From: Amoebophrya sp. A120
Taxonomy: Eukaryota > Protista > Dinoflagellata
Reading direction: 5' to 3'
NCBI GenBank assembly: GCA_905178155.1
Contig: CAJINV010000004.1
Location: forward strand, 3,001,014-3,065,013
Length of the DNA: 64,000 nucleotides
The position numbers and the translations under genes are program-made. This document shows, piece after piece, positions 9,024 to 63,715 of the stretch. How positions within the stretch are numbered: position 1 is the first letter of the stretch; each line of letters starts with the position of its first letter. A model generated the notes under the pieces. That model saw only the letters and a program-made list of their open reading frames with translations, had not been told where the DNA came from and did no database searches.

Positions 9024-11560
9024 CTATCTCTCCCCCATCTTCCGCATTTCCTTGAGCTTTTCGTCGCGCATGCGTTGTTGGTCCTGCTGTTGCTTTTCGA
9101 ACAGTTCCCGCCTCTCCCGCACCTTGGGGTCCACCCACGCCGAGGTCCAATCTGTCGTGTCCGCTTCCTTGAGGGACTTGTGCTTGACCTGCCCCTTGAA
9201 CCCGAAATTCCCGCGCCGGACCTGCATGGATGCTGGCAGGAGTTGCTTGTCGAACTTCTCGGAGTCCAAGGCCTGGTTGACGTCTCTGCGGTAGAGCATC
9301 TCCGACCCGTCCTATGACAGCGCACAACTCCCCCTCCCCCTCATTTGTATGGCATGGCCGGCAATACAAGCATCAGCGAGAAGTTCAACTTTGCATGACA
9401 AATTTACACTAGAGCGTATGGCTATTTGGGCTACCAGAACTTGTCATGCAAGCAGTGCTATCATCATCATGTAGTGGACACCCGCACCCAGCGCCACAGG
9501 TCAAGGATCCCCTCCCCGGGGGGTGGGCGAGGAAGCACTTTCGGCGACCTCATCGTACAAAAGTACGAAGCGGAAAAACTTCCCCAAGCCCATTTTTCAA
9601 AAATTTGCAGTGCTAAGAGGCACAGTCTGGATTTGGGGTTTTGCATGACAAATGAGGGGGAGGGGGGGTTGGGCACTCTCATACGTCCATCTTCTTGTCC
9701 ATAAAGTACCCGCCCTGATGGTGGTACTTCTGCATGAACCCGAACTGCGATTTTTCCGCCTTGCTGGCCATCAGCGGGTTCTCCTTGTCCATGCGCTCGT
9801 CGTCCTCCTGGCGCTCCAGGTCCGTCATCTGCCTTCGCTTTTCCAACCTTTCGAACTCCTCGATCCGCTGCGTGCGCAGCTTCTGCAAAGACAGAACGCG
9901 CTCCAACTCCCGAATCTTCCAGAGTTCCATGGACTCCGCGGTTTCATCCTCGTCCGAATCTAAGCTGTATTCACTCTCTATCACAGCAAAAAGTGTTAAC
10001 GCTAACGGAATTTGCGATGCAGCAATGCATCACAAAACATGCCAAAATTTGTATATGCATAGCATGCATATTGCACGACATTTGTGATGCATAACTGCAA
10101 TCGTCAACGTTAACACTTTTTCTTGTGATACTCTCGCTGTGGATCACCCTGTCCTCGTTGATCGCATCGATGTCCTCCTGGGCGACGCGCTCCGCCACCA
10201 TGCGCTTCGCGTCCTCCTTCTTCTGCTTCTTCAGGATCCGGTTCTCCTGCTCGAGCATCTGCTCCTCGGCCACTTTCGCGGCCTTCTCCCGCTCGGTCGC
10301 GCGCATACCTGGTTAGGGTGGATAGACTTGCTTATACTAAGTTCGTTCTACAAGAAAACAAAAGTTGCACGAGATGATACGTACGTAGCAGGACTGCTAC
10401 ATCAACCCAGGTGCGTTGTAGCTGTTGTAGCTGGTGCACTTACAGGAAGTAAGGACTACAAATAAAATCATTCGCATTATGTACCTTTTGGCACGAAGAC
10501 CGGCTTCGCCAGTTTGGCCCCGGGGCCGTCACTGTCACTTGAGGAACTTGTGTCACTATCGCTGTCGTCGAGCACTTTGGAAACCGCCGCCCCGCCGACC
10601 GGCTCAAGTTGCAAGAGCCCAGCACCTGTTGATGTACCGCCAATTCCACCGACTTTGCTGCTGCTCCGGCTTTCCTTCTCCTTTTCTCTGTCCTCCTTTT
10701 CCCTCTCCACCAGCTCTGCCTGTTTTCGGGCGCGCTCCAACGCGATGCGGCGTTTCTGCGCAGCGTCCTCGGCGACTTCGGAGTCCTCGGAATCCGACGC
10801 GGAGTCGTCGTCATCGTCGTCAACATCTCCCCGGCCAGGCCGTGGGAGAAGCGGCTGGGCGAGCGGCGGCTGGTCGGGCCTGAAGAGCGTTTCTCTATTT
10901 TTCAGAAGCTTTTTTCAGAAAAAGTAAGCGGTCGAACTCGAAGCGGAATTGTTCTTCTGCAACATTCATATGCAAGTGGTCACGAAGAGATAATTGAGAG
11001 GGAAAGTTGCACTTTTTCAGCAACACAAAATTCGTTGCATCACGGCCTTCTTGTTGAACAAAATCAGTATACCGGTCCGCTTCGTCCCCCGTTCCACCTC
11101 CGTCGTCGGAGTCGTCGTCCAATTCCACTGCGGCCTGCAGCTTTTGCCTCTTTGCTATTCGGTCGTGCACGGTTTCGTTGATCGTCCGACTCGCCACTTC
11201 TGTCACCCTTGTCTGCGCCACCCCCCCGTAGACCTTCTGTCGCGCGTGCGCGGGGGGCTTCGACGGTGCGGAAGTAGACGATCCATGGTGTCGCTCCGCG
11301 CGCAAGTGGTCCGCGGCCGCCCGGAGCCCGCGGGACTGCTGCTGGGCTTGGAGCAAGGCGTTTTGCCTTTTTATCCGCTCCTCCTGCTCCTGCTGCCGCT
11401 CCTGCTCCTCTAGCTCCTTTTTCAAAAACGCTGGCTCCGCCCCGGCGCGGTGGCGAAAGGTTCTGTTTTGCTGCTTCTCGCGGTTCTTGGGCACAAACTG
11501 GGCCGTGGCCGGGTTCTCGCCCTTGTACAGGATGGAGTGCTGATACTCGAAGGAAGCCAT
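9024..11560 (-). CDS. MFAP1: MFAP1 / Spp381-like spliceosomal B-complex protein; GT-AG introns 10309-10484 and 10895-11072 plus two TIR introns
   Basis: ELWKIRELER, FMQKYHHQGGYF, LLPASMQVRRGNFGFKGQVKHKSLKEADTTDWTSAW match the MFAP1 C-terminal domain. Confidence 0.9.
9313..9683. mobile_element. Intronic TIR element, family E, with a nested insertion
   Basis: TATGACAGCGCACAACTCCCCCTCCCCCTCATTTGT...ACAAATGAGGGGGAGGGGGGGTTGGGCACTCTCATA; DR CGTCC. Confidence 0.92.
9461..9606 (-). mobile_element. Short non-LTR retroposon-like insert with an (ATG)n tail
   Basis: 9-bp TSD GCAGTGCTA at 9452-9460 and 9607-9615; (CAT)n at the left end; first ~100 bp shared with 15900-16003; empty site seen in the family-E copy near 62875. 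Confidence 0.8.
9979..10130. mobile_element. Intronic TIR element, family F
   Basis: TATCACAGCAAAAAGTGTTAACG...CGTTAACACTTTTTCTTGTGATA; DR CTCTC. Confidence 0.92.
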
Positions 11561-14544: not shown

Positions 14545-17500
14545 TTAGAGCGCCAGGTCCTGGTCGTTGACGTCGTATTTCGCGATGCACACCAGCGTGT
14601 CCCCCAGGTGCAGCAACTCGTCAAACACGTGCGGCGCGGCCATGATAAACCGCGGCTCGATGTCTTTGGTCAGTTCTTTGATGGCGCTGTCCTTCGGGGG
14701 CGGCGGCAGTTCGTTGGGGTTGAACTTCTATCCTGTGCAAAAGTATCGTAATATTCGTATAAATGCATTACAAATTTCCCTAGCATGAGAAATAAAATTT
14801 GTAATGCTGATTTACCTAATGCATCATCGCAATACGAGTACGAAGATGCTTTTGCAATGCATAACTTCTTCCGCTTCTCGGCCTTCTCGTGCTTGATCAG
14901 GCGCGCGATGCCCACCGGAATCAGGTTGTGGTGCCACATCAAGGACTCCATGAAGTTCATCAGAGGCATATTACAATGAAAAATGCCCCCACCCCCGAAC
15001 TTGAAAGCATTTGTATTGCAAACCTTTCCAAATGAAACATTCGCCCTCTTGCATGTATCAGCATCACAGATTTCCGATCGTGAATACCAAAAATTTGCAT
15101 TGCAAAAGATCCCAGCAAGAGCGGTGCTTGTCATGCAAGCGATGCAAAACACGACTAGACTCTGCATCAGAAAGATTCGTACTCCTTTCATGCATGACAA
15201 AAAGTTTTCATTTGGAAACTTCGCAACACAAATCTTTGCAACTTTGGGGGTAGGGGGCACTTTTCACTGTAATAAGGCATGCCCACCCAGTTCTGCGGCA
15301 CGTCCACTGTGGCGCCCTTGCACATAATCATAGCCTGCACGAGGGAGACCAAACTTATCCAGGAAAAAACACCCAACTTCTACATCCCCATCCATTTTTT
15401 GCATGACAAACGCTGCTTTTAATGCATGTTAATGTTTTGCATTTGACAAAGTGGATAAGGAAGATGGGTGATCTTCTTTCGTGGATAAAACTCGTGTTGT
15501 ACAGAATGTTGACCATCAGACTGGTGATCATACTCGAGCAAAACAACTTCCCGCAGCAGTATCTCGGCTGTCGCAGCAGGGCCGCCCGGTGGGCCGCCAT
15601 GTCGGCCTCGTCGGACAAGTCTCCGCCGTCGTTTATCCTGAGCAAAAACGTTCCCGCCCCAGCGCCAAGATGGGAAATCCGCTAGAGGAATCAGCCACCT
15701 CTGGTTGTTTCGCATGACAAGTTGATCCTCATAGTGTAATCCTGTTTAGCTAGCTCCGAAGCATCACAGATCTAGCATATTGTCGTGCTGATTCTAGCAT
15801 TACAACTTCAAAAACAGGAAAAGAAAATGGCTCTCATGGGGCTCCGCATCATCATCATCATCATCATCATGGGGCTCAGCATCTCATGGGGCTCCGCATC
15901 ATCATCATCATGTAGTGGACACCCGCTCCCAGCGCCACAGGTCAAGGACCCCCTCCCCGGGGGGTGGGCGAGGAAGCACTTTCGGCGAGCTCATCATACA
16001 AAAGCCGAGCGCTACCACGGCAAGTCGCCCCATGAAAAGTACCAACCAGTCGGGAGCTACCCACCACACCTGATCAGTACAGCCCGGCCAGCTAGCCGAG
16101 CGCGACAGCCCAACATACAGAACGATCCAGGACCCGACCCATTTTACGCCTTACGTTTTTGTTCCCACGGAAGAGACGACGTACCCCTTTGGGTTAAGGG
16201 GCGAGACTCTCCCTTAAGCCGCAACCCCGCCCGGACAGGGGAGGCTGGACCGTTTGCGCCTTACCTGCGGCACGGGCGAACCGGGCAAGTGCACGGACCA
16301 CAGACCACCGGGCAAGTGCCGCATGAGAAATTTTTTTGGCATGCAGATTTGCATGACAACTCTGGTGTGGGGACGTTTTTCCTCAGGATATCGTTCGCGT
16401 CGTCCTCCGACGTGATCTTGCCCTTGGATCTTAGCGGAACCAGGTAGTAGTTTTCGTCCACGAGCAATTCGAGAATGACGCTGGTGGTGCAGAGGGGCGG
16501 CAAACTTCCCTCGATCAACTTGCAACAGAAGATGCCGTCGCTGTCCACCATGTTCATGTTGTGCGGAGCTTTGTAGGTGTCCGCGACGAACTGGGCGCTG
16601 GTGCTGGCGGGTATGCAATACAAATTTCCCGTACATGTAAGTACAAGCTGCATCACAAATTTCGCCAATTTGGAGCGTACTAAAACTTGTCATGCTAAAC
16701 TCGGATCGAGTTTAACTTTTGTCATGCAGAGACCGCATTTGTACGTGTACGGGAAATTTACTGTGGATAGCGGAGCTGGTGCGGTACATCTCGCGGTAAT
16801 CCTCCGTCTGCTTGCTGAACACTTTGCTGCCCTTCGCACCCGCGCCCCGCCGCCGTTTTCTCCCCGCAGAGCCGGCGAGGATGACGATACAGGAGGTATG
16901 AAAGCCTCAGAATGGAAATCCTCAAAGTGGAAATAACTTGTGATGCATGAAATGCAAGGCAAAAAAGACTGTATTGCAAAGGAGACAATGGAGGCCGACT
17001 ATTGTCCTGCTAGGGGTGAAGAATTGGGCTGCTGATTAGCACGACAGAAGGGCACCCCTTTGCCTAACTAACATTACAGGCACGTTTTGAGTGCCCGGGA
17101 AATTCGTCATGCGCCGACTACAAACGGCACTTCAACTGGAGTCGTTTTCTTGCATTACAAATTATTTCCACTTTGAGGATTTCCAACCTGAGGCTTTCAT
17201 AGGAGGCGTGTTCGAAGTTCGCCCGCCGCAGGTCAAACATGTTCATATGGCGTTCCCAAGTGTTACATTCTCAACTGTTACGCGATTTGTAATGCAGAAT
17301 CGCAATCAGAATCGACACGATCAAGCTGCTCCGCATGACAAATTCTCGAAGAGCCAAGCAGGCTGAGAATCTTTGCCAGATCTGTCATGCAAGACGCGCA
17401 AGGTGACCCCTTTCACTTTTGCTATTCTTGCATCACAAATCCATGTAACAGCTGAGAATGTAACAGTTGAGAACGCCATAGTTCATGGGGTTGCCGTGCA

Positions 17501-20500
17501 GCATGTAGATGCCCTTCGCTTCCAACACGCGGTACCAGTCCTGCGGAACGGCCTGGGAGAGAATGACGAGCGGAGCTTTGCTGTGGAGCCGCAGCGTGCG
17601 GATCGCGGGGTAGATCCGCACCTGGCACTTCATTGCGTTCCCAAGACAGCTATCAACTGCAAATATGTCTGGGTCTGGAAGAACGCAACTTGTCATGCAG
17701 ATTTTCCATGACCCATGAGGTCTGGAATGCGGGACGTAGCATTACAAACTCTGCGAGGTCTCTGTCATGCCTATCCTGCATGAGAAATCCCCTCCCAACT
17801 TGGTCGAAAGTCAGCAGCCTTTTGCACTCATGCAACACAGATTTTAGCATGATTCAGCTTTAGCATCACAAGTTACTGTCTTCCAGACCCAGACATATTT
17901 GCAATGCATAACAGCAGATGATCAAGTGGCCGCCCGGGGCGAGCACCTCGTTCGGCGGCGGTTTCGGGTCGGAATGCGCAATGTGCATCTATCCTGTGCA
18001 AAAGTATCGTACTCGTACTAATTGCGTTTATGCATTACAAACAAGGTCCGAGCACGGGGACAGAGTCCCCGTGCGGCGACCTTCCGGCAATTGTCTGGGA
18101 CGAGTTCGGGGGTTGTGGTGGCTGGCACTGGGCAGGCAGGCCCCTGCAGCCCGGTGTCTCTGTGTGGCCTGCGCCCCCTGATCCGCGGCAGATCTGCGGA
18201 CGGAGCCCCTCTGCTTGCCCACACTAGGCCCGTTGGCCTACCGCGAACAAAGAGAACACAAAGGAAGAAGCTGGCGCCGGATGTGTAGCTGGCCCCTAGG
18301 TCATGACGCGGGGACCGCGTCCCCGCGCTGACCTAGGGCTTTCGCCCCTGGGCCGTGAGGTTGGTTTCCGGGAAGCGCCCAAAGCTGGCCCCTAGGTCAT
18401 GACGCGGGGACCGAGTCCCCGCGCTGACCTAGGGCCTTTGCGCCTCGGCCGCGCGGTTAGTTTCCGGGAAACGCCCAAAGCTGGCCCCTAGGTCATGGCG
18501 CGGGGACCGAGTCCCCGCGCTGACCTAGGGCTTTTGTCCCTGGGTCGTGCGGTTACGTTAGTTCCCGGGAACGAAGCCCCCAAAACTGGCCCCTAGGTCA
18601 TAACGCGGGGACCGAGTCCCCGCGCTGACCTAGGGCTTTTGCGCCTCGGCCATCCAGTTAGTTTCCGGGGAGCGCCCAAAGCTGGCCCCTAGGTCATGAC
18701 GCGGGGACCGAGTCCCCACGCTGACCTAGGGCTTTTGCGCCTCGGCCGTCCAGTTAGTTTCCGGGCTGCGCCCAAAGCTGGCCCCTAGGTCATGACGCGG
18801 GGACCGAGTCCCCGCGCTGACCTAGGGCTTTTGCATTGCCCCTGGGCAATGCGGTTAGTTTCCGGGATGCGCCCGAAGCTGGCCCCTAGGTCATGACGCG
18901 GGGACCGAGTCCCCGCGCTGACCTAGGGCTTTTGCGTTGCCCCTGGGCCGTGCGGTTAGTTTCCGGGAAGCGCCCAAAGCTGGCCCCCAGGTCATGACGC
19001 GGGGACCGAGTCCCCGCGCTGACCTAGGGCTTTTGCGCCTCGGCCGTGCGGTTGGTTTCCATCCGGGAAGCGCCCAAAGCTGGCCCCTAGGTCATGGCGC
19101 GGGGACCGGGTCCCCACGCTGACCCAGGGCTTTTGTCCCTGGGCCGTGCGGTTAGTTCCCGGGAAGCGCCCAAAGCTGGCCCCTAGGTCACGACACGGGG
19201 ACCGAGTCCCCGCGCTGCCCCAGGGCCTTCGCGCCTCGGCCGTGCAGTTAGTGTCCGGGGGGCGCCCAAAGCTGGCCCCTAGGTCATGACGCGGGGACCG
19301 AGTCCCCACGCTGGCCTAGGGCTTTTGTCCCTGGGCCGTGCGGTTAGTTCCCGGGAAGCGCCCAAAGCTGGCCCCTAGGTCATGACGCGGGGACCGAGTC
19401 CCCGCGCTGCCCTAGGGCTTTTGCGCCTCGGCCATGCAGTTAGTTTCCGGGGAACGCCCAAAGCTGGCCCCTAGGTCATGACGCGGGGGCCGAGTCCTCG
19501 CGCTGACCTAGGGCTTTTGCCTTGCCCCTGGGCCATGCGGTTGGCTTCCGGGAAGCGCCCAAAGCTGGCCCCTAGGTCATGACGCGGGGACCGAGTCCCC
19601 GCGCTGACCTAGGGCTTTTGCATTGCATGCCCGTGGGCCGTGCGGCTAGTTTCCGGGAAGGGCCCANNNNNNNNNNNNNNNNNNNNNNNNNNNNNNNNNN
19701 NNNNNNNNNNNNNNNNNNNNNNNNNNNNNNNNNNNNNNNNNNNNNNNNNNNNNNNNNNNNNNNNNNNNNNNNNNNNNNNNNNNNNNNNNNNNNNNNNNNN
19801 NNNNNNNNNNNNNNNNNNNNNNNNNNNNNNNNNNNNNNNNNNNNNNNNNNNNNNNNNNNNNNNNNNNNNNNNNNNNNNNNNNNNNNNNNNNNNNNNNNNN
19901 NNNNNNNNNNNNNNNNNNNNNNNNNNNNNNNNNNNNNNNNNNNNNNNNNNNNNNNNNNNNNNNNNNNNNNNNNNNNNNNNNNNNNNNNNNNNNNNNNNNN
20001 NNNNNNNNNNNNNNNNNNNNNNNNNNNNNNNNNNNNNNNNNNNNNNNNNNNNNNNNNNNNNNNNNNNNNNNNNNNNNNNNNNNNNNNNNNNNNNNNNNNN
20101 NNNNNNNNNNNNNNNNNNNNNNNNNNNNNNNNNNNNNNNNNNNNNNNNNNNNNNNNNNNNNNNNNNNNNNNNNNNNNNNNNNNNNNNNNNNNNNNNNNNN
20201 NNNNNNNNNNNNNNNNNNNNNNNNNNNNNNNNNNNNNNNNNNNNNNNNNNNNNNNNNNNNNNNNNNNNNNNNNNNNNNNNNNNNNNNNNNNNNNNNNNNN
20301 NNNNNNNNNNNNNNNNNNNNNNNNNNNNNNNNNNNNNNNNNNNNNNNNNNNNNNNNNNNNNNNNNNNNNNNNNNNNNNNNNNNNNNNNNNNNNNNNNNNN
20401 NNNNNNNNNNNNNNNNNNNNNNNNNNNNNNNNNNNNNNNNNNNNNNNNNNNNNNNNNNNNNNNNNNNNNNNNNNNNNNNNNNNNNNNNNNNNNNNNNNNN

Positions 20501-23500
20501 NNNNNNNNNNNNNNNNNNNNNNNNNNNNNNNNNNNNNNNNNNNNNNNNNNNNNNNNNNNNNNNNNNNNNNNNNNNNNNNNNNNNNNNNNNNNNNNNNNNN
20601 NNNNNNNNNGTGTCTGGGGTGTGTCTGGGGTATGTTTATACCCCACCTGTTGCTTTTTCGCCAAAAATTTGCATTCAGGTCGTGATTGACTGCCATTTGC
20701 ATACCCCTGACACACCCCCGAACATACCCCCGAACATACCCCTCGCATGCATTTTTGACCAGCTGCTGCAGTTTAGATAGTAATCCTTTTCTTAAGGCAA
20801 ATCCGCATGACAAATTCCATTTGTCATGCTGAGTCAATTTGTATTGCAATTACTACTAGTACGATACTTTTGCAGTTCATAGCATCTCCCGCGCGCGAAT
20901 GTCCGGGCGCACGCGCAGCTCCAGAAACTCCCGGAGCCGTTGCCGGTGCTGGGCGGCTTTCAGTACGTTCTCCTCGTCCGCGGTCTGCATCTCGAGGCAT
21001 CCTGAGTAAAAACGTCCCCATACCAGAGTCGAGATGGGAAATTTTTTTTTTGCCCGGCCCCCAATTTTTTCATCATTCAATTATTCTAGTCGGGGCGGTG
21101 GGCGTTTCCAAAAATGTGAAGAACCCCTCCCACCCTCCATGTTATTCACATATAAGGAATTGCGCAGGTATACGGCATTTTTTTCCCGATTTCTTACATT
21201 CGTAGCCCGGTCTTGCAGGGCTCTCGCCCTGTTGGCACTCGAGCGAGTCGAGATGGGAAATCTGCTAGACAAATCAACCAGCTTCGGTTGCTTCGCATGA
21301 CAAATTTGTCCATGTAGTGCAATCCTGTTTCAGTAGTTCAGCAGCATCACAGATCTAGCATATCATGGTGATTCTAGCATCACAAATTGCAAAACACGAC
21401 TAGAAAATGATTCTCCTGGGGCTCCGCATGAGAAACCTTTTTGCCATGCAGATTTGCATGACAACTCTGGTGCGGGGACATTTTTAATCAGGATACGAGG
21501 CCGGTGGTATTCAGCGCTTTCATATCCGTCACCGCATGAATCTCTGCGAGCGTGCGCTTGAACCTGGTTTTGGTATAGGTGTTTCCTTGTTGTGTAGTAG
21601 TTCACAGATGAGTCTCACAATCAATCTTGCAACTTCTGTAAATGCTCTGCTTGCTTCAAGTAGCTAGTAAACGTGGTCCTCACGACACAACTTGTGTCTC
21701 TGGCAAAAAACATCAACATAATCAAAATCGAATCACATTCAAACCAACAAGCACCTTTTCCTTTCCAGCATGAGGCCGCCGGTCCCGGTGCGCCATCCAC
21801 AGTAAATTTCTTGTACATGTACAAATGCTTTTTCTGCATGACAAAGCTTTCTCATGATTCTGTTCAGCATGACAAGCGGCATGTTCATCCAAGTTGGTGA
21901 AATTTGTAATGCATTTTTTACATGTACAGGAAATTCGTATTGCATATGCGCCACACAGGGTCCACAACGTTGGGAATTTCGTCCATGGTTGTATTCGGGT
22001 ACTGCGTATCCACTGCAAAAGTATCGCGCTTGTAATAATTGCGCCACAGCATGACAAATCTTCCTCGACTGTTGAATCAGCATGACACATCTCACTGACT
22101 TCATGATCTTCTCCTTCTGAAAAAAATTGCATTTGATTTCCACAAGTTTCAATACTTTTGCAATGCCTACTCCAGATCCAGGTTGCGCTGTACGCTCGGC
22201 ACGCCGTACAGCTGTGCCAAGTCCCCGCTCTTCGAGGCCATGATTTTTTCTTTCAGGCTCATTGACTTCGTGATGTTTTTCTTCTTCGAGGCCTCCTGTT
22301 CCTCCATCTTCCGCTGCCGCTTCTTCTCCAGCGCCGCCAGCCGGGCGTTGCCCCCGGCCGCCACGGACGCGTCCGCCTGCATGCGCGCCTTGGCCTTGGC
22401 CGCGCCGGCCTGCAGCGCCTGCTGCTCCGCGCGGTACTTCAAGCCAACGTCGTCCACGCCGGGGAGGTAAAACTTCTGCGCCACGGCGGACACGTCGGGT
22501 GCGATGAAGACGCCCTTGACCTTGCGCTGCGAGAGCTGCGGCGAGTCCTTGTAGGTGGGGTCAAACACCCAGGCGGCCACCCGCTCCCCGGCGCCGGGGT
22601 TCAGCTTCAGGATCGGCAGATCGGTCAGTCCGTACTCGACAATGCCGATCATCAACACCTCCCCCTCCGAGCGGTGCAGCAAGTCCAATACGATTTCCCC
22701 GAAGGATAGGCCGTAGTATGCCTTGGACAAATCAAGTTCGTAGATTTCCTTTTCCAGTCCACTGAAGTACATTTTTTCCCAGGGCATGAACGCGTCCGGC
22801 TGGCTGGTTTCGGTCTTCGCGGCAAAGGAGGGCGCGACCGTTTTGAACAGGTTGCAGATGAAGCACGCGAACCCGGGCAGAAAGCAGGACTTCATCGCGA
22901 TCGAAGCCTTGAAATCGTCCAGACTCACCATGTACTGGTCGGCAACGCCGGCGGACCGCAGCAGCTCCTTTTTTTCCGAGACATGGAGCAGCTATGCAAT
23001 GCAAAACTTGTAGTATCTCTATCGTTGTACTCCTCGCATGACAAATCTAAACATTCAACCTTACCCAGCACGACAAATTGCGTTTTTCTTCTTCGAAAAA
23101 TTTGTCATGCCTACTCATACGAGGACACTTGTTTCATCGCAATGCATAGCAGCACCACGATCCTGATGTCCAGCAGGAGCGAATTTTTCATCTGCAGCAC
23201 TCGCATCACGTTCGACTGATCGTCCTTCTCGATGTCTTCCGCGTACAGATTGGGCAAGACGAAGATCATTAGTGCGTCGTAGGCCCGCGCGGGGATGAGG
23301 CCATCCCAAACCGACCCGTTGTACACAAACACGCGGGACCGATACTTGACGTTTTCGCGCTTGTTGAGCCAGGTCCGCACCCGGTCGCAGGTCTCCGGGT
23401 CCTCGAGTAACACGACGGTCTCCGTGTTCAGCCCGGTCGGGGGCGGCTCGAACTCGGCCGACACCGGGGGCGGAATCACCATCTTCTCTTCGTGATAGAT

Positions 23501-49600: not shown

Positions 49601-52600
49601 CTTCCACTCTTGCTGTTCTCGCGTGACAAATCGACTGCTACATGAATTTGCGATGCAAGAATGGCAAAAGTACTTGAAAGGGAGGGCCTTGCGCGTCTTG
49701 CATGACAGACTCTGCGGAGATTTTTATGGCCCTGATTGGTTCCTCTTCCTCGAAAATTTGACACGTGAAGCTGCAGCTTCGTGTCGATTCGGATGGTAAA
49801 AAGTAATTTTGCATGACAAAAATCACGTAAGTGACACCAGTTGAGACTGTAACGTCGTTTGACCACTCCATATTCCGGTGTGGCGGGTAATTCGAATTTC
49901 CACAGCTGCGACACGAGCTGGTGCATCAACAGGCGGAGGATGAACTCGAAAGGGATCAAAATCGGGGCGATTTTGGAGAGCACTCCGAAAATGTAGGGAA
50001 ACACATAATCCACCACGGCGCTAAGCACCACCTCCGTGACCGTACGCACGGAGGCGCCCAAGTTCCGGGCCCCGAGGTTTTTCACATACTCCACGAATGA
50101 AGATGAGCTCGAACGGATGAAACGGCGGACGCGTTCTGTGGCGACACCAAACTTTTGCACCGCGAGCTCGGCACCTCGGTGGGCGTTATCGCGCCACGGC
50201 GTCACGAATTGCGCCACGCGGCCAAGGCCAGTGCGAAGCCATGACAAGCGGTGGCCGCCCGAGCGGGCGGGTGGTGCGGCTTCTTCGTCGCCATCATCAT
50301 CTGCAGTAGGAGGGGCTAAACGCAGGACCTCATTGGACTCGATGTCTTGCGCAATCCTGAATAAAATCGTCCCCGGCCCAGACTTGATGTCATGCGTAGT
50401 TGCATCTACAGGAGCATTTGTAGTGGAGTGTGCCTCTTCATGAGTGGCAGGCGCAGTCGTGTTCTCAACTACATCACGGCCCTCGTATTAAGACTAAAAA
50501 CAGATTAACATAGCCAGCAGATGGCTTTGTGAGCTCCGGCCGTCCCTTCTGAGAACCTGCACTACTAGTACGCGACGAATGGAACAAAATTGGCATGCGT
50601 GACTCCCTACTCATGCTCTTCTGCGTTTTTTGATGTGTTGTAAGTATGCAAAATGATTTCGATCTTGACTTTTGGATTTCTGGGGGCGCTCTTTTCACAC
50701 AGGATACGTGCCCTTTTATCTGCCTTTTCGTAAAAATCCTCTACGTTCTCCCCCGCTGAGATCTCCCCTCTGAGTTCCGCGTCCTCGTCCGGGTCCAAGT
50801 TTGGTACCCCGGAGCCGGCTGCTTGGTGCTTTTGCAGAAATGCCACCCCGCCGTCCTCCGCAACAGCACTGGCACTGCCTGTTCCACCACCGGATGTGGC
50901 CGCGTCCCCGCCCGGGCCTCCTCCGTTGTTTCGCGTGAACGTTGCTGTTCTTGCAACTGTTGCGACCGCAGTCCTTACTACCTGCACGGCGGTACCTGCG
51001 CTGGATCTTGCGCGACCGAACAGTGCCGTGATCTTGCTCCAAACACTTGTCTTCAACGAATTCAGCGCTTCGAGTGCCCGCTCAGGCAGCATTGTGCGGA
51101 GCGAAGTCCGAAGCTTTTCTGCTCCAGCCTTCATAAACTCGACAAATTTCTTAACCAAACTGGGCAAGTGGTCTTTGAGTACGTGTTCCAGTAGTTCGGT
51201 AATCTTGCCTTCGAACTGGATACCCAGGACCAAAACCACTGCCTGCACCAACTGGTTTGCGAGCTTTCCAGTGAGCCAAGCGGGCAGTTTGAAGAGATGT
51301 AGCACCCCGAGCACGAGGTCGGAAACAATCGCCGCCAGTTTGAACAGCATTGCATTGTACAGCACGCTGGAAAACAGGCGAGCAATATTTGCAGACAGCC
51401 ACTCGACCATGCCCGCACCTGCACTCCACATCTTGTTCATCACGGTCTCCAACGATATGGAGCCGAAAAGGTCCCGGACCCTCCTTGTCACGCGTTTGAA
51501 AAAGCCCTCTCTACTCTGGTTCTCCGGGTTGCTTGTCTCGGTCTTGACGCTCTCCGCCATTTGTTCGTTGGCTGTTAATGCCAGGGTCTGCACCTCGCCG
51601 CCCACGGCTTCCCAACCCTCCTTCACTTGCGTTTCCGCTGCGTCCACTTTCGTGTCTGCCTTCACATCATCCAGTGTCTTTTTCAGGCCCTTGTCGTTCA
51701 TTTCATCGTCCACCTTCTCGGTGATTTTATCCTCGTTTTCCTTGTCGTCCGGTACGGATGGATCACGTACTTCTTGTTCTTGAGGGTCTCCTCCTCCTTC
51801 TCCATGCGCAAGCACACCTGAGGAAGATGGCACTCGTTGCTCAACATCCGCCGCCGGCTCGTCCACGTGGTCCTTCTGCGGGGCTGCTTTTTTTTCTCCG
51901 AAGAGCTTGTTCAGAAGGGCCCCCGCAAGCTTTTTGGCTTTCTTCAGCACTCCGTGGCCGAGCTCTGCGAGCTTGCGGGCCAAGTGCCCTAAAGCCGCCT
52001 TGACTCGCCCGCCCACGGCCGTCACACCCCACCAGGCAAACTTCCCGAGGTTTTCGAGCAGGGCGACAACCTTCGGAAAATATGCATTTTTGCAAACCTA
52101 ATGTCTACTCCGTTTGGAAGAATTATGCATCAAACTACTCTTTGTACTGGTCGTGCGCGCCCAACGCCACCTGGCTGGACCACAGCAAACTCTGTGTTCC
52201 TTCATGGGATGTCCTGCTCGGATAACGATACTAGCGATTATTTCTCATGGGGAACGGGTATGGGCATCACAAGGTGGCCTGGGCAGAACCTGTAGCGCCG
52301 CTTTTACGTGCAACATAATTATAATTGATTCGAAACGCAGACCAAACCATAACCATCTGTAGAAGTGTGATCCTGATTTACAACTAAGAGACGCATGACA
52401 GAGACGCGCAATCTTCCAGACCTGGAGAACATGGCAATCATTGTAACTAGTGGATAGAAAAGCGGCGGTAACAAGCTTCCAGAGCTGCTCGAGCGCTAGA
52501 CGCACGACGTATGGCACAATGGACACCACAAGGCGTCGGCCCACGACGTCTACAAGTAACTTGCGCAAGAACTGCAAAGGCCCCTTGTTCATGAATCGTT

Positions 52601-54357
52601 CGACCATTTTTTTCACGGTGCCGTGAAGGTAGTCGCCGATGGGCACCGCGACCCCGGGCACGAATCGAAACAGGGTCGCCTGCGCTGCCACACCAAGGGT
52701 CAAACTGGTGGTCTGCGCCAAGCGGTCGGTCAGCACCCCGAACATACGCGTAAAACGCGCCTCCCCAAGAGTCATCTTGGTAATCCATATCCACAGAAAA
52801 AAGCTCATCCATATTATCCATTTTTTGCATGACAAACAGAGGATCTTACACGTGTATTGCATGACAAATTGGATGATGATGTGGATGGGTGTTTTTTCCT
52901 GGATAATCCACTTCACGGCGTTAGAGCCCGCATCCATCAGTTTGTCCTTCAGCCACATCGCTTTGTCGAGCAGGATATCAAATGCAAAAATGTCTGGGAT
53001 TGGAAGGATGCAACTTGTCACGCTAAATCTGAATCATGCAAAGTTCTCTGTTGCATGATTAGTCGTCCAGTTTTGACCAAGTCGGGAGGGAGTTTCTCAT
53101 GCAGGACAGGGACGATAGAGATCGCACAGAATCTGTCACGCTAGGTCCTGCATTCCAGACCTCGTGGGTCATGGAAAAGCTGCATGACAAATCGCGCACT
53201 GTTCCAGACCCAGACATTTTTGCATTTGATACAGGAACCGGAACGGCTTTTTCAAATCGGGAACCCGCAGTTTTCCCTTCGCTTTGTGCCAGAGCTGCCC
53301 CACAGTGTCGAAGATTCGCCGGGGAAACCAAGCTTGAATCCGCTTCTCTTTTTCCCCACCAGGAGCTGGGCACTTGTTATCCATTTTCGGGAAGACCTCA
53401 GTCGTATCCGGTGCCAACAAAAAGTGTGTCACCGCAGTATGGAATTCTTCAGCTTTTTTACATTGATAGCTGCTACTATGATGTAACAAATGATTAATTT
53501 AGATTTATTTGATTTGTGCAGTAGATGCATAAAAAGCGGAACCGTCAGGGCCAGGGGGGGGCTTGCGTGTCGCGCATTGGAGATTTCGAATGCAACGTAC
53601 TTCTCCAGTCGTCGTGGTCATGAGCAGAGAGGTTACTTATAATGCGCATTAGCTTGAACATGCAATGCATGGGTGCGAGTGATTCTGTGTGGCAACAAAT
53701 GATCATGCAACAGCGATCAGTGTAACGTTTGAGAGTCGTAGTCCCATACCCACGCTCGACTTTGTCATCTTTCTCGTTTTCGACACTTACGTCATTCATC
53801 TCCTCGTCGTCATCTGTTAGTGTGGGTGGTTCCTCATTTTTAACCCGAAGACGATAGTTTTCGGCCTCCTCAGCCGCCTGCTTTCTGTCAGCTTCTTGCT
53901 GGGCCAGCCTGTCAGCTTTTTTCTGGGCGGCCCTCTGAGCTGCTTCCTCGGCCAACCTCTGCTCCCTCTCCCGTACTCCCCTGTCCAGCGCAGCGGCGAC
54001 ATCTGGGTCTAGTCCGAATTCCTGGGCAAACTCCAAACCATAGTATGCCCGTCGCTGTAGCGCAGTGCTCTGCACGACTTGGTCCGTTTCCAGTATCCGC
54101 GGCGAGAGAGAGCGTGTGTCGTCGGTGTTCTGAATACTACTAGTTATCCCATCTGCCTCAGATGAGTCGTTTTCAGTCTCCTGACCCTCCTTCCTTCGCA
54201 GTTCCATCAGCTCTGCAGCAACGAAGAAGCCGGGAAACGTTGGTGCGGTAATCGTGGTAAAAATACCGGTATCAACACTGCCTCCCAGCTCGAGCGCTCT
54301 GGCCAAGAAGAGATGAAATACGCCAAGTGTGAAAATACTACCCAGCAGCGACAACAT
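46614..54357 (-). CDS. Very large orphan protein, probably secreted or membrane-associated, with amphipathic helical and acidic blocks; 7 TIR introns (link to the 5'-most exon uncertain)
   Basis: ORFs 52245..53021, 50607..52025, 49513..50247, 47938..49422, 47248..47436 and 46614..46886 join in frame after element removal (plus one inferred GT-AG intron ~50469-50707); signal-like MLSLLGSIFTLGVFHLFLARA at 54357. Confidence 0.6.
46618..46690. repeat. Coding 21-bp tandem repeat (DEPRPEP x3)
   Basis: GGTTCAGGACGAGGCTCGTC(C/G)TGC, three copies. Confidence 0.9.
46910..47259. mobile_element. Degenerate intronic TIR element, family D
   Basis: TCTCCTGAGCAAAAACGTC...GGCGTTTTTACAAATGATA; element+5 gives FTQ|GKVAAKMREY. 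Confidence 0.78.
47389..47623. mobile_element. Intronic TIR element, family J
   Basis: TATGGCGTTCTCAAACGTTACA...TGTAACAGTTGAGAACGCCATA; DR ATGGA; same length as 17246-17480. Confidence 0.93.
47657..47975. mobile_element. Intronic TIR element, family A
   Basis: TATGCGTTGCGAACATGTCTGGGTCTGGAA...TTCCAGACCCAGACACATTTGCACTTGATA; DR GCGCG/GCGTG. Confidence 0.9.
48281..48406. repeat. Coding duplication (QP(S/G)AAAAGAG(A/G)SPAS x2)
   Basis: Two ~47-bp copies 78 bp apart. Confidence 0.8.
49440..49872. mobile_element. Palindromic dimer of family-J elements acting as one intron
   Basis: Forward J copy to ~49632, then an inverted J copy from ~49642; TAT...ATA ends; element+5 gives TPE|SRSLLEINE. Confidence 0.78.
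52081..52456. mobile_element. Degenerate intronic TIR element, family A-like
   Basis: TATGCATTTTTGCAAA...TTCCAGACCTGG...GGATA; DR GAAAA; frame restored AAF|PKVVALL. Confidence 0.8.
52788..52905. mobile_element. Intronic TIR element, family H (reverse orientation relative to 15356)
   Basis: TATCCACAGAAAAAAGC...TGGGTGTTTTTTCCTGGATA; DR ATCCA. Confidence 0.9.
52976..53231. mobile_element. Intronic TIR element, family A (interior is an inverted copy of 17651-17910)
   Basis: TATCAAATGCAAAAATGTCTGGG...CCCAGACATTTTTGCATTTGATA; DR CAGGA. Confidence 0.93.
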
Positions 54358-55959
54358 GTTGATCGCGAACAAATAGAAAAGGACCAAGACCAGCCCCCTT
54401 CTCCCGCATGATGCGAGCCTTCGACTGCTGGAGTGCTCGCCCTGGTGATGGTGTGCGCGTAAAAACCTCCTGTCCTCAATAACAGCTGCATTGATTTTCC
54501 CGCTGTCGATAGGCGATCTGAGAAAGCCGCCACGGCGCTGAAGACTAAACGGAGGTCGCATCCTCGATGAAGTTGAAGCTCTGCAGCTGCAGCCTTTTGA
54601 CTTTGATATCGTGGCTCTCGATTAAAAGTAGCACCCTTTTGAACTTGTCCCCGAGTGCAACAACTAGGTCGCGTCCCTTGAAGAAGATCGTTCCATCGCT
54701 GTGCTGATCTTCATGATCAATCGAGCCGGGCAGAATCAGAAAGTAAGAACTAAAATCATTCAAAGTGTCGATCTCCTAGGCGGGGGGTGCCTCATCAAAT
54801 ACAAATAGTAAAACTTTTATACTTCAAAATAACATCGGGGTGGGAGAGGTCCTCCTCCTCGTCCTCGTCGCATCACAATTGTAGTTGGACGCACGGCAAC
54901 AAAATGCCAAGAACAAGTTGAAGCTCTGTTCAAATATGACTTGTTAAACATAAATTCGCAAAAAGAAGTTGGATATGCTATTTCGCCTTTTCCTCCATGC
55001 GCGATATCATTATCAATAAACATGTAGTTATGTGTTACTGGCAGCTTCTCTGGCGGTTAAGACGACAGCACCGCGACCAACTTATATCGATGAAGAAACG
55101 ATGAGACAGACCAAAACGCACGGCGGCCGACCGATCAAGACTGACGTCAACATCCATGCCAGAGTCTATTCATATTCTTTGGATGCACCGATCTCGATCC
55201 TAGTCTTATCGCGATTTCTGACAGCCCCTCGACGGAAGGATTGACCGACTCAGACGAATAAAAAAAGTGGACAATTTCTTGCACTAGTAGAAGTCAAGTG
55301 GCAATATTAGAAGTCGACGAGTTTTGCACTAGTGAAAGTGGACGAGTTGCACTCACAGAAAAACCGAAGAAACCACTTGGAAGTTGTAGTTGTAGATACC
55401 GATTAATGTTGTATCTTGAAAAGTAAAACTCCAAAGGGAAGTTGTAGATGCCGATTTGGATTGCAAGTAGGGCTCCTGCACGACAGGGTCGACGATTCAC
55501 AAACCGGATGAGGTCTGATTCTGAACAACATTCACCGAAAAATACAATTCTCGTAGTCGTCGTTGAGGACTACGACCACTAAAGTACTTACAACTACAAG
55601 TTTGTGATGCCAAAGGACCGACTCATTCGTACCTGTAGCGCGGCACCGGCTGATGTGCTCCTCGCTAATCTTATTTCGGGCAGTGCGAGAAAGAGAATAA
55701 AATCCTGAAGGAACCGACGACCGGCGATGAAGCAGAAGCTCCTTGTTCGATTCGAAAATTATAGATACGCACGAACTCGTGCGCATGAAGTGGTCGAAAA
55801 CGCGCGTACGGAAATCAATCATCCCAGGTTGTTCAGGATCGATCTGGTTCTGTTTTGTGTAGAAGTTCTGGCAACAACATAACATTGGCCAGCGATAATT
55901 ACATTTTTACGTAGCAGCACGACACTTTCTCTTTAAACGCAAGATGAACAAGAACATCT

Positions 55960-58787
55960 TCACGTGAGGTCGATTACCTCAACATCATTTGCTGACATTC
56001 GACGCCGCTTCGCCTGAGAGGATGAAGCGACTTGCTGCTGGAAGTCTACTCTTGAAGAAGGTACTACACGAGGTGGAACTGCTGGCGCACCAGAACCACT
56101 GCTCAACATAATTCCGCCTGCACAACTTCTACCCACACTAGTGCCCTCCTCTCGTTGCGCCCGCATGCGCTCCAGAATGGACTTGTTACGGTCTGCGAGG
56201 GAAGAGGACGAGGCCCCCGCCGCGTAGGCGTAGTTCGCGTTCTTGTCATTATCCCTCACTACAGATGAATCCACCTCGGGCCCCGTTCTTCTTGTTGCGT
56301 GGTTTCGTTGATCTTGATCCATATTCGGATAATTTGAAGCGGTGTAACTTGATGTCTGCCCTGTCGTTCCACCACCACCAGCACCTAAGGGTAGTTGTAG
56401 TTGTGACGAGGAACCACCTCCTGATTTAATTTTTCCGGTCGAAGCTGCAACAGCATCTGCCTCTGCTCGTGCTCCACCCTGATGAGTATTATTTTTGGTT
56501 GTTGTGCCACCTTCTGCTTGTGCACCGAACGTGGTGTTAAACGGCGTCGCTGCGCCAAAAAATCCGCCTGTAGTAGCGCCAAAGGCCGCAAACGACCCGT
56601 CGCTAGGGTATGATGTAGCTGCTGGTCGTGTAGATCCCGATCCGCCGAAACTAGTATTAAAAGTATTTGTATTTATTTTGCTGTTCATCTTCGCCGATTG
56701 TTGAGGTGGCTGTACAACTGCAGCTGCACCAACTACGGGTCGTGTCAAAGCTGAACTGCTGCTGTTGAAAGTTTTTGTGTTCGCGCTCGGTTGATGAGTT
56801 TGATTTCCATTTGTATTTCCGCTGGCGGAGGAGGTTCCAAAAGCTGCGGGTTGGGGTTGTCCAGCACCGAAATAATTATAACCAAACTGCAAAGAAGAAG
56901 TAGACGGCGCTGGCGGCATTGTTGCGCTTTGCAGTAGTTGTTGTCCATTTGACACTGCATTCGAAAAAGCTTCTTGCAGCGGGCCACCTAAAAAAGTACT
57001 TCTGCTGCTCATCTTGCCAATTTTTTCAGATTCTTGGTAGAGGTTCCTTGCGTTTATTCTGTTCGACGCCCCAGCCGAAGGTCCACCAGCAGCAAATGTC
57101 CTCGTCGTGCTGGTGTCAAAAGTCGTCGCGTGGTCACCAGAGGTCGTCGGCAGAAGCGCGTGCGCTTGCGCACCTGCGGCCGGTGGATTACTTGGGTTGA
57201 TATCCTTGTTGCTTTTTGCAGCGTTCTTGGCGGATGTGCCAAACGTCGCTGTAGCTTGGAACTGGGACCGCGACGACGAACTTGCGGCCGCAGCAGTGCC
57301 AGATCCAGATGCTGGCATTTGACCCGTAGTTCCCGTAGTGAATACTCTTTCCATTCCACCGGCGAAAGTCGACACTGCGGCTGCTGCTCGTGCTACTGCC
57401 CCAGTGGCAATTATGGAAGCGTCAGGATTGAAATCGTCAAAGTTGAAATAATTTGTGATGCATAAAAAAAACCCACAAAGCGCCTGTCTTGCAGAGTAGG
57501 CAAGGGAGGCCGATTGCAAGCCTGTTGAGGGGTAGAAATAGAGCTGCTAAAGTAGCATGACAAAAGGTGTTTTCCTTACCCAAACAGCATTACAAACTGG
57601 ATTTAGGCACCACCAAAACTTGTCAAGCGCCACTTGCAAACTGGGCTCCAACTGGCATCCATTTTATGCATGACAAAGTATTTCAACTCTGACGATTTCA
57701 AACCTGACACATCCATAGCAATTGTTCCACTAGTTGTACCGGGGGCAGGACCCGCGTTTTCTTGAATAAATGTCGGCCCAAATGTGCCGCCTTGTCGTGT
57801 CCCACTTTTTTCGGTCACGACAACGTCATGACCGGCAGGTCCCGTGGCAAAAGCGAGGCCAAGTCCGCGCCGTAGCCCGCCGACATTGATATTACTACGG
57901 GATGGAGCTGTTGTATATCGTGTGTAAAAACGGGTCCACCCGCCCACAGTTGCCAGACTACAGCAAATAATTATCCGCATGCCTAAAATGATGCTTCTCA
58001 TGCGCAGGAGCACAATAGGGGGCAACTTCTAGTGGTAGTGCTATTTTGTCTGAAAACAAGAAGACCTTCAGAATTTGTCATGCCCGAATCAGGACCAGAC
58101 GCTTGACCTGGAAAATCTTTCCGTCGCTAGACGCGATGACAATGACATTTCGAGCAGGAGCTCGTCATAAGGAAAAACAGCCAAAACTTGATGTTGACTT
58201 GTCGTAGCAGGGTCTGGGGGGGCCAACCGCAACGCAGCAAGAGGTTTTACACATGATACTGTAGGTGGGGGCATTATTAAAGAACCTCCGCCACTGAACG
58301 CCGCTGGCGCGGCTGTCGCCGCCGTGTCAGCACCCACTGTCACTGGTATCGTCATCATGTTCCCCCGGTTATCCAAACTACCGCCCGCACCGGTCGCCTG
58401 ACCTTCCGCGGGCATTGTTGTGAACGTCTGCCCGCCACCAGCTGCACGTGATGATGAACCGCCGGGAGGAACTACGGGCTGCGCGGGCACGTGCGCCGTG
58501 GTCATGATCTGGGTTGGAGGACCACCACCACTTGCAGCTTTCTTTGGCATCGAAGATCCTCCAGAAGGAGCCCTGGTGACTCCCGAGCCCGCCGCGTCTC
58601 CCGGACAACTTCCGGTCTGTAGCGCGGTGTCATACTGTGGCAAGGTTGCCCGGAAGACCCAGTTGTCAACGTGCTGCGGCTGGCGAACGACCGCCACGTC
58701 GAATCCGTACGCCACGGTCTTCATCACATCGCCGCGAACGGTCTCGAACCACGCTGCCTGCTCCAAAAAATTCGTCTTCATGATCAC
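55960..58787 (-). CDS. Hypothetical low-complexity (Gly/Ala/Thr/Ser-rich) protein; two TIR introns; start uncertain
   Basis: ORFs 58089..58787, 57603..58025 and 55960..57519 join in frame (PT|AAPSR; GTI|ATGAV). Confidence 0.7.
57412..57717. mobile_element. Intronic TIR element, family I
   Basis: TATGGAAGCGTCAGGATTGAAATCGTCAAAGTTGAAATA...CTGACACATCCATA; DR GCAAT. Confidence 0.93.
57916..58258. mobile_element. Degenerate intronic TIR element, family D-like
   Basis: TATCGTGTGTAAAAAC...GTTTTACACATGATA; DR TTGTA/CTGTA. Confidence 0.78.
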
Positions 58788-58970
58788 TCTGTTCTTCCCA
58801 GGCGCGGCGGGCTCCTTGATGTCCTTCCTCTCGTCCCAGGCGGGCTCCTCTCGCCACCACGCCTGACGACCTCCGAAGTGCTGACGTCAAGCGCAGGTCC
58901 TCTTCTTGTCCTTCTTGTACAACTAATAAAGTGCTTGATTTCGACGCACCCTCCTGCTGTCCGTTTCGCC

Positions 58971-59510: not shown

Positions 59511-59655
59511 GATGGCGATGCCGCTTCTTGCAGCTCTCCGCTTCGTCAGGTGAGAGTTTGAAACAAGAACGTTTTCGCTAGTGTTGCTGGGTCTTGGCGG
59601 AAAGGCGAGTGGTCAAACTTTAGTGCGTGTACTAGGCAGGAGCATGACCTTTTCA

Positions 59656-61968: not shown

Positions 61969-63715
61969 CTACAGCTCCTCCTTTTCCATGGGCAATTCAC
62001 CGGACTCCTTGATCACCAGCTTGGCGGCCGGCTTTCCGCTTGGAGACTATGCACCATAAATTTCCCGCACGTGTACGTCAAAGTGCATCACAAGTAAGAA
62101 TGGCACCAAATCAAAAACAACTTGTTATTCAGAACCAGAAAAGTTTGTCGTGCGGAAAACTACACATTTGTACGTCGTCTGCAGGAAATTTACTGAGCAT
62201 AGGGAGCCCTTACCCTCAATGGCCTTCACGACGTCCTGGCCTTCGAGAACCTCGCCGAAGACCACATGCTTGCCGTCCAACCACGGAGTTTTGACCTGAT
62301 CAAAATCAAATCAGGAGAATGGGATATAACAATTTCTGCAACAAGGAAGTGCATGGCCACAGATCAGCCCTCTAAACTCAACCAGTATGTAGGAGTAGTA
62401 GTAGACAAATTTTTGCATGACTGGTGAGAAGTGTGATCTTCCTGTATTCATTTCTGTAGTACGCTAATATAGTACCGCACGATGCCTGCACCTGCTTGCT
62501 GCTTGTGCCTAGTAAGTATCTTCCTATGGAAAATATGCGTTTGCGTATCAAAAGCAATATTAAAACAGCTGCCGTATCTATAAAAGAAGTACTGTGGTGA
62601 TGAAGAACTGGGAGCCGTTTGTCCCGGGTCCGGCGTTGGCCATGGAGAGCAAGTACGGCTTTTTGTGCTTGTGCTTGAAGTTCTCGTCCTCAAACTTCTC
62701 TCCGTAGATAGACTCCCCGCCCGGGCTATGAAGGTACAAAAGAACCTCCACTCATTTGTATTTGGCATGAACAACGATACAAGCGTCAGCAAGGGTTGAG
62801 GCTTTGCATCACAAATTTGCACATCAGAAGACCGTAATGCCATGTGTTTAGGCTCCTGCAAGAACTTGCCATGCAAACAGTGCCAAGAGGAAAGGCGTGC
62901 ATTATAGGTGCCTTGCATGACAAATGAGGGGGGTTGCGTGCACTCTCATACGTCCCATCGCCGTTGGTGAAGTCCCCGCCCTGAAGCATAAACTGCGGGA
63001 TCACCCGATGAAACGTGCTGCCCTGGTAGTGCAGCGGCTTGCCCATCTTTCCTTCGCCCTTCTCACCTTGTTTATTTGGGGTACTACGTCTGCATGATCT
63101 CGTACTTCTTCGCGATATTCAAACGAAAAAGCAAGTAAGTTGTAGCCTAGAAGCCCTGGTCTGATTCATCATCTGCGCAACAGTACACTACTTGTGCTGC
63201 ACAAGGTACCGGATGAAGTCCAACAAAATATTCCACCACGCGCTCTCGTGCAGCACCAGGATAGGTGGTATCAATGTAAACAATTTTACCTGTGCACAAT
63301 GCCCTGAAGTTTTCTGCAGTTTTTGGAACGCTCTTGCCGTACAGACCCATCACTATCCGACCTCCATCCTCACCGCCAAGTGTTACGTCGAAGTATACCT
63401 GATATGCACAAAAACTACACAATGTGATACTCATACTTATACTTATAGATCATTCCGGAGTTTTTGCAATCAAACACATCAAGAGTACTACAGCTGTGCA
63501 GCATCAAATAACCGTGACGCTACAACTAGTTACACCTCCCATGCAAAGAAAAGAACTTGGAGTCTGCTCTCGTAAATAAGCGAGAAGAGCGCATCAATCC
63601 TGTTCAGAAATAGAAGTACCTTGCTGGTAATCTTTGGTCCCTTCTTTTTCTTCTCGTCCGCGGCTACTCCACTAGCGGCGCCCAGAAAGGCGAGCAACTT
63701 GATGACTTGCCTCAT
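61969..63715 (-). CDS. ER-type cyclophilin (cyclophilin B-like PPIase) with signal peptide and C-terminal KEEL; several introns
   Basis: [58 protein letters not shown], ends [10 protein letters not shown]. Confidence 0.95.
62048..62201. mobile_element. Intronic TIR element, family C (DR decayed)
   Basis: TATGCACCATAAATTTCCCGCAC...GCAGGAAATTTACTGAGCATA; element+5 gives GKGS|PSGKP. Confidence 0.85.
62727..62950. mobile_element. Intronic TIR element, family E (DR decayed)
   Basis: TATGAAGGTACA..CTCATTTGT...ACAAATGAGGGGGGTTGCGTGCACTCTCATA; element+5 gives GDGT|GGESIYG. Confidence 0.87.

Follow-up and report, generated by a model that had tools for sequence, protein, structure and literature searches.

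The stretch of DNA analysed here, 64,000 nucleotides from the dinoflagellate Amoebophrya sp. A120 (contig CAJINV010000004.1, positions 3,001,014 to 3,065,013; hereafter the window), is strewn with short elements of the form TAT...ATA which share an internal word, GCAT(G/C/T)ACAAA (GCATBACAAA), in both orientations, and the question arises of what reads this word. The initial annotation saw in it a binding site for a common factor, either a subterminal site of a transposase or the mark that recruits the machinery removing the elements from RNA as non-canonical introns. Judged from sequence, the elements match the description of the introner elements of A120. We put the probability at about two in three that the core of the word, GCAT(G/C/T)ACAA, is the internal word of one TAT...ATA miniature-transposon family and a putative subterminal binding site, in double-stranded DNA, for the transposase that mobilises the elements or for an accessory protein.

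The elements of the window were delimited by searches for terminal inverted repeats (TIRs) and target site duplications (TSDs) together with RNA joints, and a 5-bp TSD flanks TAT...ATA on both sides. There are 38 whole and two interrupted elements, which make up 10,278 of the 63,057 non-N bases; the edges of both interrupted pieces were set so as to take in their motif. GCATBACAAA had 49 exact matches (35 on the plus and 14 on the minus strand), among them all 14 coordinates named in the initial annotation, whereas 100 dinucleotide shuffles gave 0.58 on average and never more than 3. The elements contained 48 of the 49 matches (4.67 per kb vs 0.019 per kb elsewhere in the window), the sole outsider being located on the minus strand at 55601..55610, and the early impression that the word is almost absent from exons and spacers was thus borne out. 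A weak tenth base (A, 0.62) leaves the 9-mer GCATBACAA as the core; in the group-weighted profile it is followed by a weaker A and T. For the 9-mer, 72 of 75 matches in the window were inside elements, and none of the four RNA-confirmed GT-AG introns contained a perfect core, one of them holding a site with one mismatch. The word had been said to occur usually several times per element, which is overstated for the strict 10-mer (none in 12, one in 12 and two or more in 14 of the 38 whole elements); the corresponding numbers for the 9-mer are none in 5, one in 11 and two or more in 22. A site within one mismatch was present in all 38; outside the elements 35 such sites were found in 52.8 kb, i.e. 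about 0.66 per kb by chance.

Removal of the elements was seen in RNA-type contigs from two runs (X3 and X4) of one study, the RNA label of which is a guess. At least 25 elements were skipped in these contigs, each leaving exactly one copy of the TSD, and GT-AG introns were also skipped by some of the contigs that skip elements. Compared to the exons, long pieces of the contigs showed no difference and one listed piece showed one. An element retained in two low-depth contigs documents presence only.

An independent sample of elements was collected from a related assembly with the TIR of one family (element 17651..17910, 10-mer at 17739+, spliced) as bait. The scan found 156 stretches, of which 147 loci were used, all from one public assembly; with seven redundant loci dropped and five trimmed, the sample amounted to 638,653 bases (~639 kb). 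Elements were called by a motif-blind finder that demands a TSD match of at least three in five; it recovered 28 of the 38 window elements without a false call and found no elements in two shuffles. In the loci it identified 482 elements with a median length of 259 bp and a TSD of 5 bp (perfect in 370 of 482, a 6-bp match in 0 of 481). The 9-mer core occurred at 8.0 per kb inside and 0.49 per kb outside the elements and, after similarity masking, 1177 cores inside stood against 57 outside (7.87 vs 0.117 per kb, ~67-fold). A perfect core was present in 440 and a site within one mismatch in 476 of the 482 elements. The bait family is over-represented and accounts for 204 of the 520 elements of loci and window together. 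TIRs, a fixed TSD, many copies and recent presence/absence, the hallmarks of MITEs (miniature inverted-repeat transposable elements), were all found. In locus L019, elements at 4931-5080 and 17275-17557 are present where the near-identical locus L071 has an empty site with one TSD left; at 4931-5080 precise loss is possible, as the TSD of the occupied copy is already mismatched on its predicted intronic side.

The ends of the 482 elements share TAT, followed by C or G, six free bases and an A-run at positions 11-13, and the TIRs of the families, which had been described as dissimilar, are thus not wholly so. The distance of the first site from the nearest end peaked at 31-33 and 39-43 bp in the loci, and 54% of the element ends carry a site 28-48 bp in (group-weighted). 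The first 20 bases were free of the core, except for two sites within the repeats themselves, and no site was found 12-20 bp in. Copies on the same strand were preferentially 30-33 bp apart. The end distances of outward-pointing sites fitted a period of 10.5-11 bp (R 0.38-0.40), R being 0.11 for inward-pointing sites. The distances are symmetric at both ends and specific for each family, and have no fixed relation to the 5' or the 3' splice site. A word repeated near the ends, with defined spacing and in either orientation, is what is expected of a subterminal site.

A signal read on RNA should prefer one strand of the transcript. A codon model, for which the window was the training set, assigned the transcript strand for 374 of the 482 elements from the loci; its agreement for 36 of the 38 window elements is not an independent check. 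The two RNA forms of the motif, GCAU and UUGU, did not differ in frequency (363 vs 371, p = 0.79), whichever end was considered; none of 16 families showed an orientation bias, and strand concordance within loci was absent (p = 0.17). Only one form was found in 38 elements and only the other in 36. In the window, GCAU alone is present in the spliced elements at 43148, 50353, 53438 and 57916, and UUGU alone in those at 46910, 52081 and 52788. Since there is no strand bias and elements with a single form are spliced, a single-strand (RNA) reader of the motif is unlikely. Selection on an RNA hairpin would show as an excess of G-U over A-C pairs in the TIR stem; the loci had no such excess (sign-flip p = 0.41), and in the window a single bin of five was nominally positive (p = 0.013). 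Predicted folds paired motif with motif at 241 of 470 sites; as a general feature such pairing is ruled out by the 88 of 520 elements that have the motif in one orientation only. Of the properties of an intronic splicing signal, neither transcript-strand specificity nor retention in old, still-spliced introns was observed.

The motif diverged from the family consensus at 0.44 of the rate of its neighbours (444 copies), the outcome looked for in a test proposed with the initial annotation; the figure merges constraint before and after insertion. The two phases were separated on trees of 22 subfamilies, comprising 248 of the 520 copies, with context-corrected ratios of observed to expected changes. 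For the motif the ratio was 0.17 on internal branches, compared to 0.49 on terminal ones and 0.65 on those terminal branches that are short, i.e. the motif is constrained in transposing lineages and relaxed after insertion, as is expected of a subterminal site. On internal and terminal branches the ratios were 0 and 0.15 for the TAT tips and 0 and 0.29 for the A-run; what remains of the TIR changed at 0.97-0.98, and the variable fifth base of the motif also at about the neutral rate. TSD mismatches served as a post-insertion clock for the 449 of 520 copies that were assigned to a consensus. The slope per mismatch was 0.012 (95% CI 0.004-0.021) for the motif and 0.003 (-0.009 to 0.015) for the interior, the difference ranging from -0.002 to 0.022; this clock is weak, the interval of the interior slope itself containing zero. 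Against TIR divergence the slopes were 0.234 for the motif, 0.237 for the interior and 0.077 for the TAT tips. Decay at the rate of the neighbouring bases, which had been named as the outcome that would leave the word a relic without a role in removal, is thus largely what both clocks gave.

Persistence of the word in decayed elements, another early claim, did not hold up: eight window elements with a decayed TSD had 0.63 perfect cores each vs 2.1 in the 30 others (p = 0.001), and the site at 58074, which had been cited as the example, is the last perfect one of its element. Six of these eight elements are spliced. In the loci the mean number of cores was 2.07, 1.89 and 1.67 for TSD matches of 5, 4 and 3, respectively. 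Three spliced elements of the window (46910..47259, 50353..50706 and 53438..53748, all decayed) have no perfect core. The pattern fits a site that is needed for transposition and mostly idle afterwards; the motif may have a small, redundant role in splicing.

Among all cut registers that yield the spliced sequence seen, one alone, (1,4), fitted all 25 joints listed, the next best registers fitting 23 and 21. On the RNA the intron is then N-TAT...ATA-NNNN, starting 1 nt before TAT and ending 4 nt after ATA. Joints with intact TSDs, which are the majority, say nothing in this respect; the decayed elements constrain the register, namely 46910..47259, 49440..49872 (10-mer at 49811+, spliced) and 53438..53748, and 50353..50706 and 57916..58258 (only perfect site 58074-, spliced) rule out (0,5). 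The tips are also polar. Of the changes at TIR position 1, a single one was at the RNA 5' end and 19 were at the 3' end (p = 4e-5; 5' vs 3', these were 0 vs 9 in the loci, 0 vs 3 in the window and 1 vs 7 in further copies), and position 3 was changed 12 times at the 5' end vs twice at the 3' end (p = 0.013), with eight of nine 5' changes in the loci being to C. One mutational bias would not be expected to produce both of these opposite patterns. Therefore, the RNA 5' end reads n-U-A-Y and the 3' side has a near-invariant A at -7. The tips may represent a 5' site lacking G and a branch A, and would then resemble the bulged-A branch distances of group II introns and the +4 U of lineages without snRNP27. 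All four RNA-confirmed GT-AG introns of the host start with GTAY. The nine commonest non-canonical ends of A120 all have T at +2, those of strain A25 starting with TT (PMC7789003, Table S4), and splice sites are described as variable relative to the hairpin in the legend to Fig. 3 of that paper, unlike the single register found here. Neither a fixed register nor the 5' nUAY/A(-7) combination was found in the texts, as distinct from the figures, of the Amoebophrya literature searched. The removal signal appears to be located at the tips of the element and not in the internal motif.

Farhat et al. (PMC7789003) describe inverted repeats of A120 that begin with TAT, seven weaker bases and an A-run, and A120 introner elements have 3-5-nt direct repeats, a mean length of ~240 nt, co-oriented genes and observed removal from RNA (PMC7789003, PMC12130899). 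TAT and A-run repeats, short direct repeats (the 5-bp TSD), a similar length and removal from transcripts were all found here. The elements are thus not the undescribed system that had been suspected; what is new, as far as the texts searched show, is the internal motif and the fixed register. The motif string had no match in the A120 introner supplement texts searched (PMC7789003, PMC12130899; text, not figures), neither the motif nor a fixed Amoebophrya register was found in the searched text of PMC11282704, PMC9860276, PMC11453091 and 10.1101/2022.06.08.495308, and a full-text literature search for the string gave, among the matches listed, titles that look unrelated. Of 21 of the 58 A120 family rows of Gozashti et al. 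(PMC12130899), most are classed as TIR DNA whose superfamily is unknown; for A120 family 38, that study reports an integrase-like open reading frame (ORF). A short word repeated inside both ends at a defined distance from the TIR is also known from the P element, with its 10-bp internal transposase sites (PMC7776569), and from the MITE Emigrant, whose subterminal repeats are bound by Lemi1 (PMC1636448), but here a single word spans dozens of families and the elements serve as introns, too. IS3EU/GingerRoot elements (PMC10045372) have similar TA..TA termini and an integrase-related transposase, which would fit the ORF of family 38; the elements were not assigned to them because their TSD is usually 6 bp. 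The nonconventional introns of euglenids and the non-canonical ones of Fritillaria (PMC11282704) are likewise MITE-derived and non-GT-AG, with terminal pairing at fixed offsets. The euglenid introns have CAG/CTG at +4 to +6 and -8 to -6, whereas pairing here starts at +2 and -5, and the parts of PMC11282704 covered mention no common subterminal word for either group.

In the mechanism that we favour, a single integrase-like DDE transposase would read a shared grammar of TAT tip, A-run at 11-13 and motif 31-43 bp in, and because one transposase would read it, families with drifting sequence would share the motif. The motif is conserved in lineages that kept transposing and erodes after a copy has settled. 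Removal from pre-mRNA would be a separate function, in which the tips may act as relaxed spliceosomal signals, with a 5' nUAY mirroring the GUAY of the host, the A at -7 as candidate branch nucleotide from which the 3' cut would be measured, and the terminal hairpin as a probable aid.

Several observations weigh against this mechanism. The motif stays below the neutral rate even on terminal branches (0.49; p = 0.0085 for the 0.65 of the short ones), which unsampled parent copies or weak selection after insertion can explain, and each of the 25 listed spliced elements keeps at least one site within one mismatch. The one diverged orthologous pair (19332-19440 in L019 and its counterpart in L071) differs at about a fifth of its positions, as counted by eye, and the first site has changed only at the variable base. 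Divergence of the exons next to this pair amounts to a few percent, a hint that copies exchange sequence by gene conversion or that introns evolve fast. A period of 15-16 bp fits some spacing classes as well as or better than the helical one, and the periodicity test counts 76 groups as independent though many singletons are kin. Since elements with intact tips are preferred by the finder, the rates of TAT and A-run come out lower; the strand polarity is unaffected. No transposase or integrase Pfam match was obtained in 91 of the 132 long ORFs of the 639 kb (the 41 shortest were not scanned); nor was a long intact element found. Finally, the motif is strand-biased in the window taken alone (22 vs 46, p = 0.0015). 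This was not replicated in any subset of the loci, and a transcript-strand bias was rejected on the 374 independent elements.

The last of these points is among those that speak for the motif as the primary RNA-level signal for removal, read by a guide small nuclear RNA or an RNA-binding protein, together with its near-universal presence in the non-canonical introns, the lack of a perfect copy in the GT-AG introns and the reported failure to detect U1 in Amoebophrya (PMC7789003). Splicing needs neither of the RNA forms, though, four spliced elements having only the one and three only the other, the 374 elements show no bias, the register is fixed while the motif distance varies by family, and three elements are spliced without a perfect site. 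We regard this reading as largely refuted and very improbable. The notion of a mark that recruits the removal machinery is not supported: the motif decays like its neighbours, and the register is fixed to the tips. The transposase option of the initial annotation, by contrast, gained indirect support from end distances, the 30-33-bp spacing, strand neutrality and constraint.

Somewhat better placed, if still unlikely, is a double use, in which the protein bound at the mobilisation site, a domesticated transposase or a host factor, would also boost co-transcriptional removal, the redundant sites decaying almost neutrally. The strand tests do not speak against it because a DNA-bound mark would be strand-neutral; the terminal-branch ratios below 1 would follow from it, and only 6 of 482 locus elements and none of the 25 listed spliced ones lack a site within one mismatch. 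Such sites arise by chance, however, and elements begin with 3-7 of them, four spliced elements (46910, 52081, 53438 and 57916) have no site in the range of 28-48 bp from their ends, and the ageing slopes equal those of the interior. Slightly less probable again is that the motif binds no transposase but an architectural, chromatin or silencing protein of the host which the elements exploit. The motif would resemble paired-domain and ApiAP2-type sites. It recurs in families in which the inside of the TIR evolves neutrally, spacing by helical turns would suit a bending or architectural factor, and no transposase was reported in A120 (PMC7789003). But since the motif is rare outside the elements (0.06-0.12 per kb) no native use by the host is visible, and one end grammar and one TSD length across families are expected of a single transposase lineage. 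The transposase or an accessory protein remains our preferred reader of the motif.

The remaining elements of the window are given with the positions and strands of their strict 10-mers. Spliced are those at 9313..9683 (9393+, 9643+), 9979..10130 (10027+, 10081-), 14729..14863 (14765+, 14798-), 14969..15274 (15192+), 15356..15487 (15401+), 16612..16769 (16650+, 16718-), 16897..17201 (17152+), 17246..17480 (17286-, 17333+, 17430+), 47389..47623 (47429-, 47476+), 52788..52905 (52827+ and 52859+, 32 bp apart on the same strand), 52976..53231 (53182+), 57412..57717 (57452-, 57555+, 57587+, 57668+) and 62727..62950 (62806+, 62915+). Spliced elements with 9-mer cores are the long one of 757 bp at 15634..16390 (three cores), 47657..47975 (two), the 92-bp element at 43148..43239 (one, in a single RNA form), 52081..52456 (one, not close to the ends; weak TIR) and 62048..62201 (one), located in a gene that reads as cyclophilin-like; the element at 4742..5020 (TSD 5/5, three cores, no strict 10-mer) is skipped by the RNA-type contigs. 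Of the decayed spliced elements, those at 46910 and 53438 also lack a near-end site. The other whole elements are located at 20998..21495 (21295+, 21377+), 21794..21946 (21836+, 21903-), 22007..22169 (decayed TSD; 22049+), 22993..23148 (23036+, 23101-), 24013..24209 (24078+), 24494..24776 (24658+), 30084..30245 (30123+, 30188-), 32220..32464 (decayed, no perfect core), 32559..32773 (32702+), 32823..33017 (one 9-mer core), 34569..34875 (34713+, 34777-, 34826+), 37531..37771 (no perfect core, three one-mismatch sites) and 39910..40166 (40117+).

The larger interrupted element (2.9 kb, 17990..20881, TSD 5/5; 18032+, 20805+, 20820-) contains an insertion of GC-rich tandem repeats as well as an assembly gap; excision of the element restores an ORF of 416 aa, and no RNA joint was seen. 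Of the other, only the right end is present (2111..2204, 10-mer at 2111-), adjoining a GC-rich insertion. The insertions, at 18042-20776 and 1-2110, have different repeat units, and both start directly after a motif copy carrying a similar hairpin, which was not found in the related loci. With two insertions at hand, it is possible that a second element targets the motif. The insertion at 18 kb appears to lack a TSD and to have Helitron-like ends on the minus strand. An X4 contig skips a further GC-rich stretch of 934 bp (59656-60590), which is located between 57-bp direct repeats and has neither TAT...ATA ends nor the motif; a polymorphic insertion, an intron of another type and an assembly artefact are possible explanations.

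The minus strand of the window carries long ORFs bridging elements and the four GT-AG introns. With every element taken out, ORFs of 1,716 aa (spanning nine elements) and 416 aa (spanning ten) are restored. A GPN-loop GTPase had 53-66% identity to at least 120 matches, with dinoflagellate and Perkinsus names among those listed. Three of the four GT-AG introns (10309-10484, 43509-43693 and 62296-62592) have an A in a branch-like context five bases before the 3' end, which suggests a very short branch-to-AG distance in the host. An expressed stretch at 12860-13930 (X4 contig 12867-13924) contains internal repeats and a 28-base word duplicated at ~12870 and 13897. Two raw-read RNA runs, X9 and X10, gave 167 and 2 partial reads, confined to element sequence; genes were not covered. 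The X9 reads match only the TIR region of one element (16897-16955), with 90-95% identity; their flanks are unrelated (152 loose ends), which points to expression of a related element in a different strain or at a different locus. Rfam gave no match in the window, and viral contigs had none to the TIR pattern.

More than 60% of the introns of Amoebophrya A25 and A120 are non-canonical, and the route of their removal was stated to be open (PMC7789003). A wider picture, which we offer tentatively and would not bet on, is that one undescribed integrase-like system, marked by TAT tip, A-run and helically phased GCATBACAA, made most introns of this lineage, and that a modified spliceosome reads the symmetric tips (nUAY, branch A at -7 and a ruler-set 3' cut), allowing scarless removal in either orientation and from any target; the DNA-bound reader of the motif may then couple transposition to splicing. 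In sum, the analysis separates two signals, an internal word for mobility and tips for removal. The shared word is a bait for the protein that moves the elements, and it suggests a single system behind dozens of "families". More surprising, as a by-product, is the excision rule, which is fixed and defined by the tips: N-UAU...AUA-NNNN replaces "variable splice sites", would permit tens of thousands of introns to be re-annotated exactly and makes the question of how they are removed directly testable.

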